Source: Candidatus Thorarchaeota archaeon (GTDB lineage: Archaea; Asgardarchaeota; Thorarchaeia; Thorarchaeales; Thorarchaeaceae). From it: a stretch of DNA of 12,050 bases. Numbering within the stretch: position 1 is the first letter of the stretch; each line of letters starts with the position of its first letter. Made by a program: the position numbers and the translations under genes. The notes below the pieces were generated by a model. The model saw only the letters and a program-made list of their open reading frames with translations, had not been told where the DNA came from and searched no databases. Shown here piece by piece: positions 1,041 to 12,050 of this stretch. Location: NCBI GenBank assembly GCA_048882325.1, contig JBHLRS010000066.1, positions 1-12,050 of the forward strand, read 5' to 3'.

Positions 1041-3194
1041 CTATCTCCCGAATCTCCTTCTCGCATAGACCGCGGTGAAGATAACAAGTAGTCCACCAAA
1101 CATGCCGGAGGCAATAACCGCTTGTTGAGGAGATAATTCAAACAATCCCTTAGTTTTGGTGGTGTTGCTTATACCAGTGCTAGTCGAGTTTGGTTGCATG
1201 CTCTCCACAAAGCTTGGGAAGTGGTCGATGTCATCATCATCGATGTAATAGTATTCCTCAGCACTCTGCAGGTCGCTCCAGCTGTTTCCCTGATCAATCT
1301 CGTTGTCCCAGCGATTTTCGGAACCTGTACATAGAGCGTTGTCTAGATTGTCAAAGACATTACCAATTATATGATTCCTGCCTGAAAGCCGATTAAGATA
1401 GATGCCAAGTTCGTTCTCAACAATCTCATTATTTCCAATCATTGTTTCATTTGTACGAAGAATGTAAATTCCAATACCATTGTATCTTATTGAATTCGAC
1501 TCAATGGCGGAACCATGAGCACCGATTAACATGATTCCGTCTTCATTATCAAGGACCTGGCAACGATATACCCGTGTTTCAAGTGACTCGTCGAATAATA
1601 TCCCAAAGCCATTACCCTGGATAATACTTCGATAGACCGAACACTGTGTAGACTGGTCAATGTAGATGCCTACCTCGTTGCTTCTTGCTTCAATATAGCT
1701 AAATAAAATATCAGTAGAATAAAGGACGTAGATGCCCCTGACTGCTTGACTGATAGTTACACCAACAATCTCACACTCTTCACTATGAAACAGAGTGATT
1801 CCTGATAGCTCGCCACTAGTGATCACAACCTCGGAGCAGACAGCCAAAATGATCTGTTCAAAATCAGCTCCGTTTAAGACAATTCTGGATTCATTGAAGA
1901 AATACCCTAGCAACCCTCCATTCACAATGTTTCCTGTGATCTCTTGGTCAAACGCACTAGGGTCTGTGACTTGGAACAATATGCCACAATCCACAAAGGT
2001 ATTGTTTGCTATAACTGAATCGATTGGCGGACCGACCTCATAGCCTATTCCAGGATACTCTTCCAAACTCACTGCGTTCAGACAATCGTACACATTGTTC
2101 TCGATGACCTGTGTGTTAATCCCCCCTTGCAGTTGAAATGCAGTGCTTACTTCATGCATCTCATTCCATCGTATCAGAGATTGTCGCGTAACTCTTGTCT
2201 TTATCCCGATAGTGCTACCCCGCGCCCCTGAAATGTCATTCAACTCAATTATGCAACTATTCGATATCTGAACATCGATACCCATGTTCTGCGCTCGAAT
2301 CCTATTGCTCGTAACGAGTGCATTTGTGGTACGTAATTGGACACCTGTCCAGACACTATACAGTGTATTATTGTCAATCTGATTGTCTATTCCATACAGA
2401 ATCTCGATACCTGATTCAAACCCATCAAACACGTTTCCTCTTATAATACCATTCAGGGACTCTCTGAAGATAAGACCAAACTGACCTATAGTTGGCATAC
2501 CTGCAATTTGGAAATAGTTGTCCTCAACGGTGCAATCAAATCCAAAAGCGAGTCTGATCGCATCAGCAGTAACATCACTAAAGAGGTTGTCTCGAATGGT
2601 CAGTCCACTGGTATACTGAACATGGATAGGGAATTGAATGTTTGAGTGTCCCTGACTGTTGCCTGAGAAAACTGAATTGTTCAGATTGTATGCCAGAAAT
2701 CCTAGAACTTGGCTTCTCAGTTGGTTGCCAGTAAAAGAACAGTTTGCTGAGTCGTATATGGTGATAGCACTATGTATCGCTGAAATATTGGAAGTACTGA
2801 TGGTGCCATGAGAAACATTATCAAATGTGACCACACCGTTTCCCCAAACAACGCCGCTTCCTGATAGCCAGCAATCACGAATCACAAAAAACTTGGATGT
2901 ATTCGCAACGGATATTGATGTGACTGAGGTCGTTATGTTCAGGTCCTCAATAATGTATGGACTTCCTTGAGTGCCCAGACCTGGCCACCCCTGCGAGTCA
3001 AAGTCTGAGTCGTTTCTTATAATGATGGGTTGGTGAGGTGAATAACTCACTAGACGAGGTTGGTCTATAATCTCATCTCTTGAACTATTGTATTCAGATT
3101 CCTTACCAATGCTGGAGATTGAAAACATCAAGAATACAACTAGTGCGCAAGTGACTGCTTTCTGCAATCGAGTGGGAGAGAGTGAATAATTCAC
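1041..3194 (-). CDS. Membrane-anchored right-handed parallel beta-helix (NosD/CASH-like) cell-surface protein
   Basis: N-terminal hydrophobic signal (AVTCALVVFLMFS), an HQPIIIRNDSDF..QGWPGLGT..SPYIIEDLNI cap, many GIxL..(S)....I..N.I..N repeats, an NRWD...GNSWSD...D.FP end cap, a Ser/Thr linker and a C-terminal TM helix followed by RRRFGR. The start is uncertain (3242, GTG 3194 or TTG 3167); the AT-rich TATA-like stretch at about 3215-3229 favours the shorter starts. Confidence 0.88.
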   Translation of the reverse strand: MNYSLSPTRLQKAVTCALVVFLMFSISSIGKESEYNSSRDEIIDQPRLVSYSPHQPIIIRNDSDFDSQGWPGLGTQGSPYIIEDLNITTSVTSISVANTSKFFVIRDCWLSGSGVVWGNGVVTFDNVSHGTISTSNISAIHSAITIYDSANCSFTGNQLRSQVLGFLAYNLNNSVFSGNSQGHSNIQFPIHVQYTSGLTIRDNLFSDVTADAIRLAFGFDCTVEDNYFQIAGMPTIGQFGLIFRESLNGIIRGNVFDGFESGIEILYGIDNQIDNNTLYSVWTGVQLRTTNALVTSNRIRAQNMGIDVQISNSCIIELNDISGARGSTIGIKTRVTRQSLIRWNEMHEVSTAFQLQGGINTQVIENNVYDCLNAVSLEEYPGIGYEVGPPIDSVIANNTFVDCGILFQVTDPSAFDQEITGNIVNGGLLGYFFNESRIVLNGADFEQIILAVCSEVVITSGELSGITLFHSEECEIVGVTISQAVRGIYVLYSTDILFSYIEARSNEVGIYIDQSTQCSVYRSIIQGNGFGILFDESLETRVYRCQVLDNEDGIMLIGAHGSAIESNSIRYNGIGIYILRTNETMIGNNEIVENELGIYLNRLSGRNHIIGNVFDNLDNALCTGSENRWDNEIDQGNSWSDLQSAEEYYYIDDDDIDHFPSFVESMQPNSTSTGISNTTKTKGLFELSPQQAVIASGMFGGLLVIFTAVYARRRFGR

Positions 3195-3306
3195 AAACTG
3201 AAAGGCATGGATTGCAATATAATATAATTGCCCCTGACGCAAATGCTCAATGTCACGCGAACCTTAAAACGAAAGATATGCTCAGTCAAAACGAGGCACG
3301 TTAGGA

Positions 3307-4575
3307 TTGCAAGGCCAGAACATCCAAGCCATTCTCATCATGGAGCGTGGAGGAATTCCGCTATTCTTCATGAAGATTGATCCTCGGGCTCAGGACTTAG
3401 ACCCGATGCTTGTGTCTGGGTTCTTCACCGCAATCCAGACTTTTTCCAAGGAGGTTGTGGACCGTCGTAGTTCTAGGTTTCAGGTTGACTATGGTGCTCG
3501 TCTGTTCACAGTTCTCTCAGGCGAGTCGACCGATCTCGTTGCTGTGAGTATGGGCGAATGTGAGGAAGATGTCATCCTAACCCTTACATCTCTTCTCGAG
3601 GAGTTTGAAGGCGTCTGGATCAAGGACCTTACTCGTGAAAAGATGGACACACTCGATATCAACACCGAGTTCTCTGACTTCAGGGAAGGTGTTCTACAAA
3701 ATCTCTCATTCAAGCAAGTTATGGGAAGCTGGATTCCGTTCTTTGTGGGGAGTCCTACTTCTAAGACAACGGAGAGTATAGTTGTCCCATTCATAGATGG
3801 TAGTAGGAATGTGGATGAGATTGTTAAAGAGAGTGGATTGAATCGTGAGGATGTAACTTTTGAAATAACTCGACTCTGGGCTTTAGGAGTTCTTCAGTTT
3901 CGTAGCATTCTTGCCCCTAGTGATGTGGTTGTGTCTACATCGAGACTCGACAGATTTCTCCAATCCTCGTCTTCGCAAAGGGAAGAGCTAGCTCGGACAA
4001 ATCCTGAATTACTTGCACTTCTTCCTCGTATGTCCACACTTTTCGATGGCCGAAGAACTGTGGGTGCAATAACCAGATTTCTCTCAGAGCAGTATTCAGA
4101 GCGTGCACTTATGCAAGCTTTCGATCTCTTGATGGAGAGTAAAGCAATCGATGTGCTTACCCCAGAAAAGAGAAGAATTCTGTTGACCAAAGAGGCCACG
4201 GAGATTGCCATCAAAGTAGCTGAGAATGTCTACTCTGAGGAGAAAGCCTACGAATATCTCGAAACTGCGCTTGCGAAAGTTGCGGTCCCAGAGGTTGTGG
4301 GTGAGGTCCATCTCACTGATGGTAAATGGGAACTGACCTATGGTTCTCGACTTCTCGAAGGACTTGATCCACGAAGATTAATGGAGCTCTATGCTGACTG
4401 GATAAAGCTGCTTGCTCAGTTTTTAGGCGCTATAGACAAGTCGAAGATAAGGACCTATGCTGAAGGTTTGACAGACGCCTACTCATCCTACCTCTTGAAA
4501 AGATACACAGCTGATGATCTAAGGGGATTCGAGGAGATCTCCTACTGGCTCGAGCTAAACTGTGTTGGGAAGTGA
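3307..4575 (+). CDS. Longin-domain protein with tandem winged-helix units (NPRL2/Npr2-like) and a C-terminal helical domain
   Basis: The N-terminal ~130 aa show the Asgard longin pattern IxAILIMxxGGIPLF...DPMLVSGFFTAIQTFSKE followed by three strands and a helix. Two DGxRxVxxI units follow (PFIDGSRNVDEI at aa 161 and FDGRRTVGAI at aa 246). TTG start with GAGG at 3293-3296. Confidence 0.8.
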   Translation: MQGQNIQAILIMERGGIPLFFMKIDPRAQDLDPMLVSGFFTAIQTFSKEVVDRRSSRFQVDYGARLFTVLSGESTDLVAVSMGECEEDVILTLTSLLEEFEGVWIKDLTREKMDTLDINTEFSDFREGVLQNLSFKQVMGSWIPFFVGSPTSKTTESIVVPFIDGSRNVDEIVKESGLNREDVTFEITRLWALGVLQFRSILAPSDVVVSTSRLDRFLQSSSSQREELARTNPELLALLPRMSTLFDGRRTVGAITRFLSEQYSERALMQAFDLLMESKAIDVLTPEKRRILLTKEATEIAIKVAENVYSEEKAYEYLETALAKVAVPEVVGEVHLTDGKWELTYGSRLLEGLDPRRLMELYADWIKLLAQFLGAIDKSKIRTYAEGLTDAYSSYLLKRYTADDLRGFEEISYWLELNCVGK

Positions 4576-4581
4576 AAAAAG

Positions 4582-4911
4582 ATGACAGAAGCTGAAAGAC
4601 CAATTCGAAAGCTCGCAGAAATACTCAGCAGAAGAGGCCAGACAATCTATGGCAGACAAACAATAGTGGAACTCTGCTCTAAGGCAGGTGTGTCCCTCAT
4701 GAATACATTTGATGTAGGAGACCCCGACACAGACGAATCCCTTCAAAACTTCCTAGTTCAGTATTCAAGGCTCAATCCTGCGGCCAAGCTGACCATCCTC
4801 ATCCTCTCTAAGCAATACGGTGTTTCACTCCCTGAAAACCTACTTGGGAAGAAGAAAGGGCTCAAAGACCGTCTTGAATCGCTACAGGACTACCTTCCGT
4901 GGTCTCCATAG
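4582..4911 (+). CDS. Hypothetical mostly alpha-helical protein, 109 aa
   Basis: ATG lies 6 nt after the upstream stop in the same orientation. It has amphipathic helices and no recognised catalytic motif. Confidence 0.8.
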   Translation: MTEAERPIRKLAEILSRRGQTIYGRQTIVELCSKAGVSLMNTFDVGDPDTDESLQNFLVQYSRLNPAAKLTILILSKQYGVSLPENLLGKKKGLKDRLESLQDYLPWSP

Positions 4912-4975
4912 ATTTCTCTCCTTCTTCAGAAAGATTGAACTACTCTCTAGCACTCCGCAGACATGGTCGTGTGGA

Positions 4976-5488
4976 ATGAGTCCATCATATCTTTACAAGA
5001 TTGTGACAGTGGGGTCCTCAGCAGTGGGGAAGACCTCTATCATCATCCGTTACACCACAGGCAAATTCAGGGAGTACTATGCTCCAACACTTGGTGCTGA
5101 CTTTTCAGTGAAGAGCATGGAGATCGGAAGTAATCGAGTCAAGTTACAGATCTGGGACTTGGGGTCTCAGGACTTCCTTGGACATGTAAGAGCTGGTTAT
5201 TATCATGGTGCACGAGGCGTCATCTACATGTTCGATGTAACACGCCCCAATAGTCTTGAAGAGCTATGGGCGTGGAAGAAGGAGGTCGACTCCCAATTGA
5301 AGGGTGTCAAGGTTCTTGTTGTTGCAAACAAGACAGATCTCGATAAGGACAGGAGGGTGTCCCGTGAAGAGGGAGAAAAGTTTGCCAAGAAGTTCCTAGC
5401 AGAGTATGTGGAAACCTCGGTGAAACTGAACAAGGGCGTTGATGACACCTTCACAATCATGGCAAAGCGCTTGATGGTAGATGCATAG
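4976..5488 (+). CDS. Rab-like small GTPase (Ras superfamily), 170 aa
   Basis: G1 GSSAVGKTS, G2 YAPTLG, G3 WDLGSQ, G4 NKTD, G5 ETSVK. RabF-like motifs LGADF, KLQIW, YYHGA and YMFDVT are present. The start is reassigned to ATG 4976 (MSPSYLYKIVTVG). There is no C-terminal prenylation Cys. Confidence 0.95.
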   Translation: MSPSYLYKIVTVGSSAVGKTSIIIRYTTGKFREYYAPTLGADFSVKSMEIGSNRVKLQIWDLGSQDFLGHVRAGYYHGARGVIYMFDVTRPNSLEELWAWKKEVDSQLKGVKVLVVANKTDLDKDRRVSREEGEKFAKKFLAEYVETSVKLNKGVDDTFTIMAKRLMVDA

Positions 5489-5567
5489 TTTAGCTAAAGC
5501 CATCATTTTCTAATGTTGGCTGTAAGCACACATGATTACTGATAGACTCAATTTTCATTTGAGGTGG

Positions 5568-7517
5568 TTAACCGAGGATTTCTGAGAACAAATCCCTGCT
5601 CAGCTCCTGTTCAACCAGACTGACTTGCTGCTTATTCCTTCGATAATCTCGAAATGCAATGATTGCAACCACAATAATGATCTCAATCGATGCCGCAGAA
5701 ATCCCCAAAGTCGCAGCACCTAACCAATTAGGATCAGTGTTTGTGGATACATCTGGGGGTATTGTTGGAATCGCGGTGGATGGAGATGTTTCCGAAACTT
5801 CGTCAGCAGGGAGAAAGTGATAGTGTGAGTTCTTTGTCAGAGTATATGTATTTCCTGAATCATACTCTAAGAAGATATACGGGCCGCATGTGACATGAGG
5901 GTGCGTGGGATTGAAACCCGGATTCCAGTCTTCCCAATCATCAAAGCCAACAGCTCCATACTCACTGAACACATGTTTCGGCAGTATCTTGATGAAGGCG
6001 AAGTTGTTTAAGTGCCAATACGACTCAGATCCGAATTCGATTACCACTCGATAAGGTTGTTGAGCATATGCTGCGTAGAGGTCTCCAAAGGGGAGCCCTA
6101 GAGCGTGATAATGTGCACCACTCTCTAAAATGTAGGAAAAGGTGTTTGCTACATCTTCTGCTGTAAGAGGTGTTCCATCAGTCCAAGTTGCGTTTTGGAT
6201 GATATCGATGATGTACCTTTGATGATTCTCAGGTACTGCAGGGTTGTCACTATGGGTCTGAACAATACAACTTGTTGCCAGATCCATGACAGGATGTTGG
6301 GCTGGATCAAGTCTGAACAGGGAAGAATATAGACTGTCCATGACATCTTGCCAAACTCTTCCTGATCCTGTGAATACATTCAGGGTCTCAATCTCCTGAG
6401 GTATCGCGATAGGAACTATTCCTCCCGGATTGCCATCGATTCTCTTTATGTGCCTAAGGGTCCATTGGCCACTGATGTATTTTCTCAGGTCCCTGATATG
6501 GTCTTTGAATCTGTCATTCCTGTATGCCTGCATGTAGGTTGTCTCGTACACAACTAGTCTGGGTACGTTCTCATGCAGAATCATCTGCATGTGCGCAGCC
6601 GCCTCATAGACTTCATCATAGGTCACTCCATGAAGGAGCTGGTCAATCCAACCGTCGTATGTTTCATTCACGAAGTTCGTTGGGTTGCAATATGGCACAG
6701 AGGCGTGATCTCCCCTAAACTCGTATGCGAGCCACTCGACATCATTTCCAGGGTACTCACTGACATAGAAGACCATGTCAAAGTCCCCATGTTGGTCCAG
6801 TCTTGAGATGTATTCGTTGGGTGGAGTAGGACGAGTTGTCGCGTTGACATCTAAAGCCCTGAGGGCGTCGACACCAATCTGAGCTGTACCCCCGGCAATC
6901 TCAGGTGATGATGAGGCATATTCAATGACTACGTTGAATGGTGACTCATCAGGAGCCAGCCTGTAGCCTGAACCAGGGTCGATGGTGAAGCCTGCTCTAT
7001 CCAGGATCTGATTGCCTCTATCTACTTGCGCTGTATAATAGTGGTAAGGCATATCGTCCTCGATGCACCAGCCGCTAGTATAAGGCACAAGTGAGTCATG
7101 TTCCTGTGAAAAACCGTCTTTGATCTCTGACGTGACTGCGGTCTTGTCGAAAGCATACGCAAAGGCTCTTCTGAATGCACTGATATTTAATGGATACTTT
7201 CGACAGTTGATTGTAAGATGGCCGTATCCATTTTGGAGTGCAGAGAAGATATCTATTTCATAATCCCAATCTAGTGTGTTTAGATGAACAGGATCAAAGA
7301 ACGAATGGTCAATCTCAATATCCCCCTCTTGTATTGCTAGCATCCTTTGGTCTGCTAAAGGTATGACGGTATACTCGATATTATCAATATGTGGGCCTGA
7401 GTTTGGACTATGTGGAAGGGTATATCCATAATGAGTCGAAGCTGAAACCACACTGAGCCCTGACACACACACAAGAAGAAGAACGACTCCTACTGCGCTA
7501 TGGAATCTCCAATCCAC
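5568..7517 (-). CDS. ABC-type substrate-binding protein, family 5 (DppA/OppA-like), circularly permuted, with C-terminal TM anchor
   Basis: Family-5 motifs FRRAFAYAFDK, ATWTDGTPLTAEDV and VTCGPY...LTKNSHY. Signal peptide, Ser/Thr/Pro linker, TM helix and a ~27-aa tail. GTG start with GAGGAG upstream. Confidence 0.92.
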   Translation of the reverse strand: MDWRFHSAVGVVLLLVCVSGLSVVSASTHYGYTLPHSPNSGPHIDNIEYTVIPLADQRMLAIQEGDIEIDHSFFDPVHLNTLDWDYEIDIFSALQNGYGHLTINCRKYPLNISAFRRAFAYAFDKTAVTSEIKDGFSQEHDSLVPYTSGWCIEDDMPYHYYTAQVDRGNQILDRAGFTIDPGSGYRLAPDESPFNVVIEYASSSPEIAGGTAQIGVDALRALDVNATTRPTPPNEYISRLDQHGDFDMVFYVSEYPGNDVEWLAYEFRGDHASVPYCNPTNFVNETYDGWIDQLLHGVTYDEVYEAAAHMQMILHENVPRLVVYETTYMQAYRNDRFKDHIRDLRKYISGQWTLRHIKRIDGNPGGIVPIAIPQEIETLNVFTGSGRVWQDVMDSLYSSLFRLDPAQHPVMDLATSCIVQTHSDNPAVPENHQRYIIDIIQNATWTDGTPLTAEDVANTFSYILESGAHYHALGLPFGDLYAAYAQQPYRVVIEFGSESYWHLNNFAFIKILPKHVFSEYGAVGFDDWEDWNPGFNPTHPHVTCGPYIFLEYDSGNTYTLTKNSHYHFLPADEVSETSPSTAIPTIPPDVSTNTDPNWLGAATLGISAASIEIIIVVAIIAFRDYRRNKQQVSLVEQELSRDLFSEILG

Positions 7518-7588
7518 ACCTGTCTCCTCAAGTGAATTAGGGAGTTAACAGTGAAGTATCTTTGTTTCTGTGTATCTGCGGACACATT
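7517..7588 (-). promoter_or_regulatory. Upstream region of SBP paralog 1: RBS, conserved AACAAAGATACTT core and TGTGT-N8-ACACA palindrome (7569-7586)
   Basis: These blocks are conserved at near-identical spacing in 9807-9877 while the intervening bases differ. Confidence 0.65.
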
Positions 7589-7599
7589 TTGAGCGACTT

Positions 7600-9807
7600 C
7601 TATGCTTGATCTTGAGTGTCTGAACCAAAGATCTCAGCAAACCAGTCAACTGGATTCTCTTCAGGTATGCTTTCTTTCGTTAGACGCCACTTCTTGTAGT
7701 CCCGCCTGGAAACACAAGCCACCCAGAGGAATACCTGAATTGATACAACAGAAATCGCGATTGCAACTGCTCGCATAGGGGACACTGGTTGTCCTGGAAG
7801 AGGACCTAGGTCAGATAGTACATGAACCTGAACAGAACTTGACTCAGAGTATCCTCCGTCATATTCAACATCCAACGTAAACACATAGTTACCCACATCG
7901 AGACCGTCGATAGGACACACAAGAGGTCCTCCCTCCCACCTTCCAATCGCCACTACGTCAGAATTCCTGTACAAAGTGTATGATGCATTCTGGTTCAGGA
8001 TTGTACTCCACTCAATGGTGTTTCCTTCCGAACCAACGAAGTACGTAATTTCCTCCAGCGATCTGATGAAGGTTTCTGAGTAGTGAGGGTTGTAGTAATA
8101 TCTCGGGTTTTGGGTCAACTCATAGAAAGGCAAGTCTATGTATCGGAAAGTTTTGTATCCCTGTCCAGCACTGGTGAGTATAAACGGTCCACTTGTCACA
8201 AGGAGATCGGATGGATTGCGCACTGGATTCCATATGTCCCAGTTTGCATACCCAATACCATCCTGATCGTTGAAAATGTGCTTGGGGATTATCTTGACAA
8301 ATGCAAAACTGTTGAAGTGCCAGTAAAACTCGGAATTGAACTCCAACCTCACAGTGTATGGTCCCAAGGCGATGGCTGATTGTAGGTCTTCTAGTTGACT
8401 AGACATGGGATTTCCATATGTGCCACTTTCCAGAATGTAGGTGAAGGTAAAAGCCACGTCTTCTGCTGTCAGAGGTGTTCCATCACTCCAGGTTGCATTA
8501 TGGATGATGTTGATAGTGAATCGAGTGTGACCCTCAGGAACATCTGAATTGTCGCTATGTGTTTCTGTGGTTAAGGTAGTGGCCAGATCACCAATTGGAT
8601 GCTGACTGGGGTCCCTCACATATAATGATGAATAAAGGTTGTCGAGAATAAAATAGGTGTGTGCATCTGCATCTTCGAGAAAGATGTTGAAGGTGTCTGT
8701 ATATTCAGGCAATGCGATTGTTGGAATCCTGTTCCGAGGTTCTATTTCATGTATGTTCCTCATTGTCCAAGGACCAGCGATGTATCTAGCTAGGTCTGGG
8801 ACATGACCTGTGAATATGTCGTTTCTATACATCTGCATGTTCGTGTTTTCGTATGCCACTAACCATGGAACATTGTAGTGTATAATCTTTTGAATCTCAG
8901 AAACTGCATCGTGAACCTGTTGAGCGTCTGTACTATGGAGAAATTGATCCCTATACAGGTCGAGTGTCTGATTTACAAATTGTGCAATGTTATGATAGGG
9001 TAAGTCTGCATTTGGAGACCAAAACTCATCTATCAGCCACAAAGGCTCTGTATCATAGAAATCAATCTCTTGAAATAGAATATCAAATTCATGATATCCA
9101 TCACATCTGACAATGTATTCATTGAACTCTACGCCCCTTATCGCTGCATCAACAGAAAGTGCGTGCAATGCATCAATCCCGATTTGGCAGGTTGTTTCTG
9201 CAATTATTGAATGAATAGGGTACTCGATAACAATGCTAAATGGCGAACCATCAGGAGCCTCCCTCCATCCTGTTGTTCCGTTGATCGCAAAACCTGCTGC
9301 ATTGAGAATCTCGTTACCAACTTCTGGTTGGGCAGTGTAGTAGTGGAAATCGAGCTCATCCTCTATGCACCAATCGCTGATATAGGGTATGATTGAATCG
9401 TGTTCCTGGGAGAAACCATCCATAGCATAAGCAGTGACTGCGGTCTTGTCGAAGGCATAGGCAAACGCTCTTCGTAAAGCACTGATATTGAGTGGGTATT
9501 GTGAACAGTTTATTGTGAAGTAGCCATACCCGTTTCTGAGCGCGCTAAATATGTCGATATCTAAATCATCTAATGTAGGTAAATGGGCCGGGTCAACGAA
9601 CCCTGTTTGCATCTCGAACTCACCTGCTTGGAGGCCAAGGATAGTCAAATCTTTGTTCTCCTGTTCAAAGAAGACAAGTCTATCAACGTATGGTCCAATC
9701 TGAAGATCTTCTGGTACGATAACTGCGTCTATTGCAGAAACCTGAGATGAAACAAGTATTCCCAAAAGTAGCAGTATTCCCACTACTCTGAAGACTCTCC
9801 AGTCCAC
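7600..9807 (-). CDS. ABC-type substrate-binding protein, family 5, circularly permuted, with Ig-like domain and C-terminal TM anchor; tandem paralog of 5568-7517
   Basis: Motifs LRRAFAYAFDK, ATWSDGTPLTAEDV and VTSGPF...LTQNPRY. It has an extra beta-rich domain (GNTIEW...YTLYRN...GRW...DGLDVGNYVFTLDV) before the TM helix, and the same MDWR start and GAGGAG RBS as the paralog. Confidence 0.92.
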   Translation of the reverse strand: MDWRVFRVVGILLLLGILVSSQVSAIDAVIVPEDLQIGPYVDRLVFFEQENKDLTILGLQAGEFEMQTGFVDPAHLPTLDDLDIDIFSALRNGYGYFTINCSQYPLNISALRRAFAYAFDKTAVTAYAMDGFSQEHDSIIPYISDWCIEDELDFHYYTAQPEVGNEILNAAGFAINGTTGWREAPDGSPFSIVIEYPIHSIIAETTCQIGIDALHALSVDAAIRGVEFNEYIVRCDGYHEFDILFQEIDFYDTEPLWLIDEFWSPNADLPYHNIAQFVNQTLDLYRDQFLHSTDAQQVHDAVSEIQKIIHYNVPWLVAYENTNMQMYRNDIFTGHVPDLARYIAGPWTMRNIHEIEPRNRIPTIALPEYTDTFNIFLEDADAHTYFILDNLYSSLYVRDPSQHPIGDLATTLTTETHSDNSDVPEGHTRFTINIIHNATWSDGTPLTAEDVAFTFTYILESGTYGNPMSSQLEDLQSAIALGPYTVRLEFNSEFYWHFNSFAFVKIIPKHIFNDQDGIGYANWDIWNPVRNPSDLLVTSGPFILTSAGQGYKTFRYIDLPFYELTQNPRYYYNPHYSETFIRSLEEITYFVGSEGNTIEWSTILNQNASYTLYRNSDVVAIGRWEGGPLVCPIDGLDVGNYVFTLDVEYDGGYSESSSVQVHVLSDLGPLPGQPVSPMRAVAIAISVVSIQVFLWVACVSRRDYKKWRLTKESIPEENPVDWFAEIFGSDTQDQA

Positions 9808-9886: not shown

Positions 9887-10762
9887 TTATCCGCTATAAT
9901 CTACAATATTGGGCTCATCCTCTATGAACTCAGCAGATAGGCCTAATCTATCAAAGAATTTCAGCACTGCAATGCATGCAAACTTCTCAGTAGAATAGTG
10001 AGTAGCGGAAATCACATTGATCTTGTGCTCCTCGCATAGCTCATGGAACCTCAATGAAGGTTCATAATTTGCAACCTTCATTGTGACCCCAGTGATGAAA
10101 TTCCTAACATCCGTACCAGAAATCTCCTCCGCAATCTCTGGATAGTTGCCACCACCCGCTACTAGGGCAACTCTCTGGTTTGAAATCTCAGGTGAGCCAT
10201 ATGCCCATGTTCTCACAGGGTGACCTACCGAATCTTCGAATTGCGCGACTAGATTGGAGACAGTTTTGCATTCAGTCTTTCCAATGATGCCTGCCTTCAC
10301 GCCAAAATAATCAAAGAATTCATCCTCGATGTCTATCTCGATAGCTTTTGCAAGTGATACAGTTGTACTGTAGGGTCCATTCCTGTCCAGTGGTACATGG
10401 ATTGAGTAATATGAGATTGCTCGCTTCTTGAGTTGGTCCAAATATCGGTGCGGGATGTTCCTGAAAGGGTGTTCTCCAGGACGTGGATCCCATATCATCG
10501 GATGGTGGGTGAAGAGAAGGACATTCCGCTCATCTGACGATATTATTCTATCAAGCACACGTTCACTTGGAAACACTGCAGTGTAGACATTGTGAATCTC
10601 GTCTGTGTTATCTAATGCAAGCCCCATCCTTGTAGTCTTGAAATTCTCTGTGATATTATCTCCCAGATCTAAGTTACCCCACTCATCATCAGTGAGTTTA
10701 TCCAGTTCAAACTCCTCATCCAAACTCGCAAATAGCTGCTCCGCTTTCATTTTCCTTACCAT
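9887..10762 (-). CDS. NIF3/YbgI-family dinuclear metal-centre protein
   Basis: Family metal-ligand motifs LFTHHP, YSIHVPLD and ATHYSTE, plus VALVAGGG; 291 aa. Confidence 0.9.
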   Translation of the reverse strand: MVRKMKAEQLFASLDEEFELDKLTDDEWGNLDLGDNITENFKTTRMGLALDNTDEIHNVYTAVFPSERVLDRIISSDERNVLLFTHHPMIWDPRPGEHPFRNIPHRYLDQLKKRAISYYSIHVPLDRNGPYSTTVSLAKAIEIDIEDEFFDYFGVKAGIIGKTECKTVSNLVAQFEDSVGHPVRTWAYGSPEISNQRVALVAGGGNYPEIAEEISGTDVRNFITGVTMKVANYEPSLRFHELCEEHKINVISATHYSTEKFACIAVLKFFDRLGLSAEFIEDEPNIVDYSG

Positions 10763-11151: not shown

Positions 11152-11325
11152 CCATGAATCATGCTTGCATCAGAAGGGTGAAAGAAGCACTCATAAACCT
11201 CTAAATCAAAAATCACGCTTTATTAAAGTTCATAACAGTTCGATGAGCGGGATTTAGCTTGTAAATTGTCGGCAAAAATTGCAGAGAACCCTATTAATGT
11301 AGATTTCTTTAGAATATTGAAGAAA

Positions 11326-12050
11326 ATGAAATTCTACAATGATGTAAGCCAAATGATAGGTCGGACACCACTTGTCAGAATTACGCGTCACAATCCATAT
11401 CCAGAGGTCACGTTACTGGCAAAGATTGAAGGCAACAATCCAGGCGGCAGTGTGAAAGATAGAATTGTAAAGTATATGATTGATGATGCTATAGAAAGTG
11501 GTAACTTAACAAGAGACAAGACAGTGATTGAGGCAACAAGTGGAAACACTGGAATAGCTATCGCCATGCTTAGTGCAGTCAGAGGATATCGTTGTGAATT
11601 GGTGATGCCTGAGTCGATGTCTATTGAACGTAGAAAAATAATGGAAGCCTATGGGGCTACTGTCACTTTGATTCCAGCTGAACTCGGTATCGATGGGGCT
11701 CAGGACTACGTGAACAGCAAGATCGAAGAGTATCCAGACAGTTATCACCAACTCAACCAATATGACAATCCACTAAACTGGATTGCGCATTATGAAACCA
11801 CCGCTCAAGAAATCATTGAAGATACAGATGGGGAAGTGACTCACTTTGTTGCAGGTCTAGGAACATCAGGTACATTGATGGGTGTGGGTCGAGGTCTGAA
11901 AGAGAAGATTCCTGATGTAAAGATCATTTCAGTAGAGCCTGAGTCTGGTTCTTTGATTCAGGGTCTAAAGGACTTGAGAACTCAATATGTTCCAGGAATA
12001 TTCGACGAATCTATTCTTGACCAACGAGTCTTTGTTGATGATTGCTCAGC
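11326..12050 (+). CDS. cysM: PLP-dependent cysteine synthase (CysM/CysK family), truncated at window end
   Basis: Manual translation (absent from the ORF track): MKFYNDVSQMIGRTPLVRI...AKIEGNNPGGSVKDR (PLP lysine), IEATSGNTGIA, MPESMSIERR, NQYDNPLN..AHYETTAQEI and VAGLGTSGTLMG. The KxEGNNP motif is CysM-like. Confidence 0.92.
   Translation, partial: MKFYNDVSQMIGRTPLVRITRHNPYPEVTLLAKIEGNNPGGSVKDRIVKYMIDDAIESGNLTRDKTVIEATSGNTGIAIAMLSAVRGYRCELVMPESMSIERRKIMEAYGATVTLIPAELGIDGAQDYVNSKIEEYPDSYHQLNQYDNPLNWIAHYETTAQEIIEDTDGEVTHFVAGLGTSGTLMGVGRGLKEKIPDVKIISVEPESGSLIQGLKDLRTQYVPGIFDESILDQRVFVDDCS

Follow-up and report, generated by a model that had tools for sequence, protein, structure and literature searches.

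An NPRL2-like longin protein, its helical companion B and a private Rab-like GTPase form a conserved gene set in Thorarchaeota

Described longin systems and the A-B-C locus

Longin platforms generally regulate small GTPases, and NPRL2, the catalytic longin subunit of the GATOR1 complex, is a GTPase-activating protein (GAP) for RagA. The window analyzed here, the whole 12,050-nucleotide stretch of Candidatus Thorarchaeota DNA represented by contig C66 of genome G000 (3.6 Mb, 93% complete), encodes an NPRL2-like protein, a small helical protein and a Rab-like small GTPase in succession, designated A, B and C; A~B denotes A and B fused in a single open reading frame (ORF). A reading made by a model from the sequence alone had proposed that the three constitute a cognate regulator-GTPase set. 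Comparative genomics bears this out, through near-obligate linkage, a GTPase clade private to the module and duplication of the module as a whole. The arrangement given in that reading, three co-oriented genes on the + strand with gaps of 6 and 64 nucleotides and opposite-strand genes on both flanks, agrees with the ORF listing and translation:

Gene A, 3307-4575, + strand: 422 residues, TTG start; NPRL2-like protein
A-B gap, 4576-4581: 6 nucleotides
Gene B, 4582-4911, + strand: 109 residues; helical protein, putative tail or adaptor of A
B-C gap, 4912-4975: 64 nucleotides
Gene C, 4976-5488, + strand: 170 residues, ATG start; Rab-like small GTPase, G domain only

Conservation of residues 1-11 in orthologs supports the TTG start of A. 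The same DNA is present in sediment metagenomes from two separate studies, and is therefore not an artefact of one assembly.

The family of A is already published, as the Asgard NPRL2-like family of Liu et al. (bioRxiv 10.1101/2020.10.19.343400; Nature 2021). The distribution reported in the accessible part of that work matches the distribution seen for A; the same part gives the domain organization, and makes no mention of B, the A~B fusion, the private GTPase or the form linked to an oxygen-binding di-iron protein (ODP, family PF19583). The papers we searched likewise say nothing of B, the A~B fusion, the private GTPase clade or an alternation between ODP and GTPase. The accessible text of Liu et al. 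also covers Asgard longin/roadblock-GTPase operons of other families. One described there, combining a LAMTOR1-like roadblock protein, a Rab-like GTPase and a DENN protein, is likewise a conserved regulator-GTPase neighborhood, built from protein families other than those of A, B and C.

Protein A shares with the NPRL2-NPRL3 pair of GATOR1, and with Npr2-Npr3 of SEACIT, a longin domain followed by a winged-helix region. The GTPase on which GATOR1/SEACIT acts as a GAP, RagA/Gtr1, is however a Rag protein with a roadblock domain, whereas the partner of A is the single-domain, Rab-like C, and NPRL2 has neither the extra helical residues of A, about 134 in number, nor B. The prediction that a GATOR1-like architecture is paired here with a Rab-like rather than a Rag-like GTPase thus stands, on the profile and fold of A and on the missing roadblock domain of C. 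Model PF12257 for DEPDC5/Iml1 finds no match in G000, but finds none in control genomes either. An obligate paralog heterodimer in the style of NPRL2/NPRL3 is unlikely, because modules with separate A and B genes (split type) and modules with A~B (fused type) are not always found together, with only the fused type in genera g9 and g12 and only the split type in g16. The MglA-MglB system offers a second likeness, a prokaryotic small GTPase beside a partner of the roadblock/longin superfamily, and MglB is among the fold matches of A; MglB, unlike A, consists of one roadblock domain and homodimerizes.

Longin and NPRL2-like proteins are numerous in Asgard genomes, small GTPases run to dozens, and among these the module names a one-to-one partner set. 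The trio consists of three small soluble proteins (two in the fused paralog) and is open to bench testing. An NPRL2-type protein is paired here with a Rab-like, not a Rag-like, GTPase, and the same platform elsewhere is tied to an oxygen/iron sensor; both the Rab-like pairing and the ODP link bear on the origin of eukaryotic GATOR1-Rag nutrient signaling.

Linkage, co-duplication and protein relationships

The census of C covered 86 genomes of the family and counted C-clade genes at 51% identity or above. Of the 78 C-clade genes identified, in 61 related genomes, 73 have an A gene no more than 4 kb away on their contig, and three others are found at contig breaks. In split-type loci with sequence available after A, B is directly 3' of A without exception (28 of 28), and in 26 of these C comes after B within the contig; the other two (L016 and L049) end at a contig break or contig end. 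Because this gene order recurs across split-type loci, the A-B-C arrangement is not a chance one. The genera with C are precisely the genera with GTPase-type A (g1, 3, 5, 6, 7, 8, 9, 11, 12 and 16), and C is found in none of genera g2, 4, 10, 13, 14 and 15. Conservation of gene neighborhood, the check that the sequence-only reading had put forward for itself, therefore finds the trio kept together across ten genera. The A-C linkage persists despite genes inserted between B and C. These inserts encode a serine beta-lactamase-family protein (PF00144, about 420 residues) or an 856-residue Big_7 protein, and occupy L047 5020-6282, L048 3237-4496 and L078 1859-4429.

Phylogenetic trees give the same picture from both sides of the pair. 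All 47 A proteins linked to a GTPase group in a single clade (support 100), within which the fused A proteins form a sub-clade (100). The 40 module-linked GTPases form one clade as well (100 by the Shimodaira-Hasegawa-like approximate likelihood ratio test), apart from 20 other GTPases of G000, and the fusion-linked GTPases again form a sub-clade with support of 100. The A and C trees mirror each other, and therefore the whole module was duplicated as a block, A and B together with C. Within G000, which encodes about 22 small GTPases, the profile of module GTPases scores C at 290 bits and the neighbor of the fused paralog at 272, with the next best at 178.

One explanation of such linkage is that A, B and C are co-regulated neighbors without direct contact, kept together by a shared pathway or by transcription. 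Genes unrelated to the module do stand between B and C at some loci, and C may have a promoter of its own, since the spacer between B and C contains a conserved element:

Conserved block (AGAAAGATTGAA-TACT-TC) in the B-C spacer, 4928-4947, + strand: 20 nucleotides, candidate internal promoter or regulatory site

In eight same-genus orthologs, 18 of the 20 columns of this block are invariant, while the start of the spacer and neighboring third codon positions vary. No promoter word shared by the regions upstream of A and C rose above chance. A private GTPase clade tied to one family over ten genera is, however, the usual signature of a physical partner, and whole-module co-duplication and matching phyletic patterns likewise speak against mere neighborhood, so that we consider this explanation improbable.

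A further pairing may exist in the same genome. At G000:C7:6592-8197, tandem small-GTPase genes (6592-7170 and 7171-7713, + strand) stand beside a minus-strand frame of 266 residues that weakly resembles the C-terminal portion of Pfam NPR2 (E 0.013), and these genes may represent another combination of GTPase and NPRL2-like protein.

Protein B has a model with a predicted local distance difference test score (pLDDT) of 80 and four to six helices, and no Pfam or NCBIfam match. Fold searches gave no significant match by Foldseek (best E 2.5) and, across all of VIA, a top Z of 5.5, reached with the N-terminal helices of an H-NOX domain and no better than noise when the query is helical. In the protein atlas B matched only unnamed clusters, with scores below 0.9, and the B family comprises just 33 clusters among 1.84 billion representative proteins. 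The possibility that B is a repeat of the C-terminal domain of A was considered and rejected (hhalign E 0.26).

B and A stand together in every type of locus, as neighbors or as a fusion. A paralogous module of G000 (G000:C3; L031:3288-4874) joins A and B in one ORF of 528 residues through a linker of about 20 residues, and A~B fusions occur in 17 further loci (18 in all), L029 being an example. P0130 is a fusion in the reverse order, with B N-terminal to a longin protein. Because it is fused to A in paralogs, B is a C-terminal module of A that can be detached, rather than an independent subunit; the earlier description of B as an uncharacterized third subunit is not sustained. A and B work as one functional unit, hereafter A·B, and the split A-B form displays B as a separate gene. 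At one locus, L066 (G337:C121), a 265-residue gene (2553-3350) resembling only the helical C-terminal domain of A (residues 277-417, 31% identity) sits between a fused A~B and its GTPase, with an unrelated small-GTPase gene upstream (5411-5908).

Protein A was modeled with AlphaFold from a 40-sequence alignment (pLDDT 86.3, predicted template modeling score 0.82), and the model resolves into three parts:

Longin domain of A, residues 6-135, nucleotides 3322-3711, + strand: model topology b-b-a-b-b-b-a-a
Winged-helix region of A, residues 143-283, nucleotides 3733-4155, + strand: from the model
Extra helical C-terminal domain of A, residues 286-419, nucleotides 4162-4563, + strand: from the model

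The longin fold that had been read from the sequence is confirmed by VIA, with Z from 10 to 12.3 to synbindin, Sec22b and sedlin (root mean square deviation about 3 A over 110-125 residues). Resemblance to NPRL2 extends beyond the longin domain: VIA aligned 246 residues of A (4 to 284) to NPRL2 chain 9v0j_A with Z of 10.3, and all 13 Foldseek matches at E of 0.001 or better were NPRL2, NPRL3, Npr2 or Npr3 chains of GATOR1/SEACIT (E 2.4e-7 to 2.3e-4 over 326-490 columns). A different placement of the domains keeps the template modeling score of these 13 matches at only about 0.25. By sequence, the A family profile A1 matches human NPRL2 at E of 1.4e-8 (profile positions 79-288 to NPRL2 118-328) and the A family profile matches yeast Npr2 at 0.012. 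A is therefore homologous to NPRL2, and its NPRL2-like character, likewise predicted beforehand, holds for both architecture and sequence profile. Named homologs are all labeled Candidatus Thorarchaeota, except one labeled Lokiarchaeota.

Protein C matches Pfam Ras at E of 1.7e-44, and among solved structures it comes closest to Rab21, Rab8A and Thor-Rab 7EZB (E about 1e-34 to 2e-33), while Gtr1_RagA gives a weak match (8.4e-5) to the G domain only. With a length of 170 residues, C is indeed a bare, Rab-like G domain with no roadblock domain at its C-terminus, as had been anticipated. It ends ...RLMVDA, with no C-terminal Cys for prenylation; Asgard Rab-like proteins usually lack a C-terminal Cys. 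Its motifs are GSSAVGKT (G1), W-D-L-G-S-Q (G3, nucleotides 5153-5170), NKTD (G4) and TSVK (G5).

The G3 sequence departs from the canonical form. The glycine of DxxG touches the gamma-phosphate in Ras and is the pivot of switch II. In 41 of 42 module-linked GTPases, the switch II sequence is D-[LM]-G-S-Q, with Ser at the Ras G60 position in place of the canonical DxxGQ, while all 20 other GTPases of G000 keep DxxG. Some eukaryotic complexes hold GTPase-fold subunits that do not cycle, and the substituted glycine could mean that C is a crippled or slow switch, resembling a pseudo-GTPase, and acts as a constitutive structural component of a complex with A·B. We find this very doubtful, as module-linked GTPases show no variation in G1, G4, the switch I Thr or the catalytic Gln, which argues for real nucleotide binding and hydrolysis, and the one remaining member keeps a glycine, reading D-L-G-G. 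MglA has an intrinsic Arg in switch I (Tran et al.), and at that position, just before the switch I Thr, C has Pro37, by our reading of the alignment of Tran et al. With its catalytic Gln kept, Pro37 in place of Arg and a derived switch II, C looks like a partner-dependent switch.

Readings of the module: nucleotide control and exchange of partner

The role of NPRL2 as a GAP, taken with the linkage data, leads us to propose that A·B most likely sets or reads the nucleotide state of C. In the mechanism we favor, A·B would be a two-piece NPRL2-like protein, with B docking as the C-terminal tail of A, would be the dedicated physical partner of the private GTPase C, and would control the GTP/GDP cycle of C. 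That A·B acts as one unit, binds C and controls its nucleotide cycle we rate at about an even chance; binding and the nucleotide effect are both predicted from comparative evidence. As to the kind of action, GAP-type activity or engagement specific to the GTP state is a tentative suggestion, and guanine nucleotide exchange factor (GEF)-type action, which we rank below it, would be unlikely.

Several residues of the A longin domain may be relevant to GAP-type action. GAP-type longins carry a "GP motif" where the b1-b2 loop ends (PMC12290439), and two positions in A deserve listing:

G16-I17-P18 of A, b1-b2 longin loop, 3352-3360, + strand: position of the GP motif in GAP-type longins
Arg65 of A, b3-b4 turn, motif D-Y-G-A-R-L, 3499-3501, + strand: candidate functional residue

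The sequence in A is G16-x-P18, not G-P. G16 is invariant and P18 is present in at least 90% of 40 homologs; among the GTPase-linked A proteins, the two positions hold G in 47 of 49 and P in 46 of 49. Of the GTPase-linked A proteins, 45 of 49 have Arg at position 65, versus 7 of 13 ODP-linked ones. R/K14 of the longin domain is also conserved, and is likewise a candidate only.

A number of observations weigh against the mechanism we favor. Protein A has no Pfam or NCBIfam match above threshold, missing the cut-offs of both NPR2 (PF06218) and NPR3/HTH_NPRL3; among 40 A homologs, one matches NPR2 at 1.1e-3 and nine match HTH_NPRL3 at 2.4e-4 or weaker, all of them sub-threshold. A profile built from the longin domain only (A4) gave no NPRL2 or FLCN match among PDB sequences, so that the arginine finger is not mappable by alignment. 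GAPs of the NPRL2/FLCN/SMCR8 type have such a finger, which in FLCN (R164) and SMCR8 (R147) sits in the longin b4-b5 loop. The predicted b4-b5 loop of A (residues 72-74), by contrast, has no conserved Arg, Gly72 being conserved while positions 73 and 74 vary; the finger position in this comparison is taken from FLCN and SMCR8 rather than from a residue-level structural alignment to NPRL2 R78. The conserved spacer block, as mentioned, may be a promoter belonging to C. No longer protein containing a C-type GTPase was found, nor any fusion of C with A or B, which is weak evidence. The two remaining C-clade genes of the 78 (in G320 and G362) adjoin only a stump of A, 38-50 residues long. Both loci, L075 (G320:C1) at 5080-5747 and L077 (G362:C4) at 2866-3497, have an N-terminal stump of A followed by C, with B gone, and represent deletion scars; G362 also holds an intact fused module. 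Finally, the fused A~B genes in L060 (G368) and L062 (G370) have no GTPase within about 3 kb. The gene at these two loci is the second fused A~B paralog of genus g12.

Outside the GTPase-linked clade, the A and B families occur with a different third gene. Distant A homologs (21-38% identity) from four Asgard families (f1, f9, f13 and f21) cluster with B and an ODP gene. The ODP of these sister modules is roughly 245 residues in length and matches PF19583 at E of 1e-51 to 1e-55, and the gene order is A-ODP-B or ODP-B-A. These are tight clusters of the same A and B families as the module studied here, but the third gene encodes a di-iron sensor, not a GTPase. B also differs by type, with a basic K/R tail in ODP-linked modules and an amphipathic tail in GTPase-linked ones. 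G000 has no close ODP; its best match scores 77.7 bits, in a frame of roughly 400 residues, compared to 174-186 bits for module ODPs.

ODP-linked copies branch more deeply in the unrooted A tree, while GTPase-linked A is limited to a single Asgard family; because of these two facts the GTPase form looks derived, and it is probably derived rather than primordial. The suggestion that the locus preserves a "primordial" GTPase switch is accordingly unlikely to be right, with GTPase-linked A confined to one clade in one family and A plus B linked to ODP in four.

The exchange of ODP for GTPase suggests an alternative in which A·B would be a receiver or effector platform, B would be an adaptor for a variable input, and the GTPase would have replaced the oxygen/iron sensor as the upstream switch. 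The occurrence of the same A-B pair with ODP genes in four families, the single clade formed by GTPase-linked A proteins, the lack of a close ODP in G000 and the lack of an evident arginine finger in A all fit this alternative, as does the position of B, which adjoins the variable partner in all three gene orders. Against it, no output domain is known for A·B, the NPRL2 homologs and longin platforms characterized to date work on the GTPase cycle, and the A tree is unrooted, so that the direction of any swap would be conjectural. ODP-type and GTPase-type modules may also cooperate, since they stand side by side in G324. We regard the alternative as possible, though on balance doubtful.

The locus in G324 is L038 (G324:C6:18000-29000), which carries ODP-B-A and A-B-C, and therefore both module types in one locus, over the span 1756-8274. 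ODP-B-A (1756-2487, 2475-2792 and 2822-4048) is about 2 kb upstream of A-B-C on the same strand. In the latter, A is broken into two frames (5958-6461 and 6500-7348), and B (7352-7684) and C (7759-8274) come next; the split of A is either a frameshift or an assembly error.

A broader and more speculative proposal, one we would hold unlikely for now, is that A·B is a hub with exchangeable front ends, either ODP or the private GTPase, with B as the adaptor, and that it would be an archaeal forerunner of GATOR logic. If so, sensors and GTPase would meet on an NPRL2-type core, and in G324 the two front ends, encoded side by side, might serve one pathway.

Two other distant A homologs have unusual neighbors. 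In L037 (G010:C211, 2018-4703), the A homolog is flanked by two small-GTPase genes of canonical DxxGQ type on the opposite strand, and in L074 (G083:C72, 2757-4485), a Roadblock/LC7 gene precedes it.

Flanking genes and the remainder of the window

The opposite-strand genes that bound the trio belong to families whose tie to it holds only within the genus:

Upstream flank, 1041-3242, - strand: NosD/right-handed beta-helix protein, 733 residues, Pfam NosD 3.3e-41; divergent from A, outside the module
Downstream flank, 5568-7517, - strand: family-5 solute-binding protein, Pfam SBP_bac_5 7.2e-42; convergent with C, outside the module

A paralogous second family-5 solute-binding protein is encoded at 7600-9807, beside the first, and both have signal and anchor segments. 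In same-genus relatives (L008, L010/L047 and L015), similar solute-binding protein genes are upstream of A, not downstream of C, and the NosD-like neighbor recurs inside the genus only. Both kinds of gene are excluded from the module because their recurrence is limited to the genus and they appear on changing sides of the module. An amino-acid sensor beside a GATOR1-like module, as the solute-binding protein genes might suggest, was considered and rejected, since these genes and the NosD-like genes are missing from more distant loci.

Histidine kinases (HisKA/HATPase, including a 1130-residue multi-PAS kinase) adjoin some modules, at L032 5413-6792 and L075 1240-4632. Such neighbors agree with a comment in the accessible part of Liu et al. 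on an association between NPRL2-like longins and two-component parts.

Elsewhere in the window, the first 534 nucleotides encode the C-terminal part of a methylmalonyl-CoA mutase (PF01642, 1.1e-59), a NIF3/DUF34 gene occupies 9887-10762, and the start of a pyridoxal phosphate-dependent enzyme (PALP, 2.3e-59) is found at 11266-12048.

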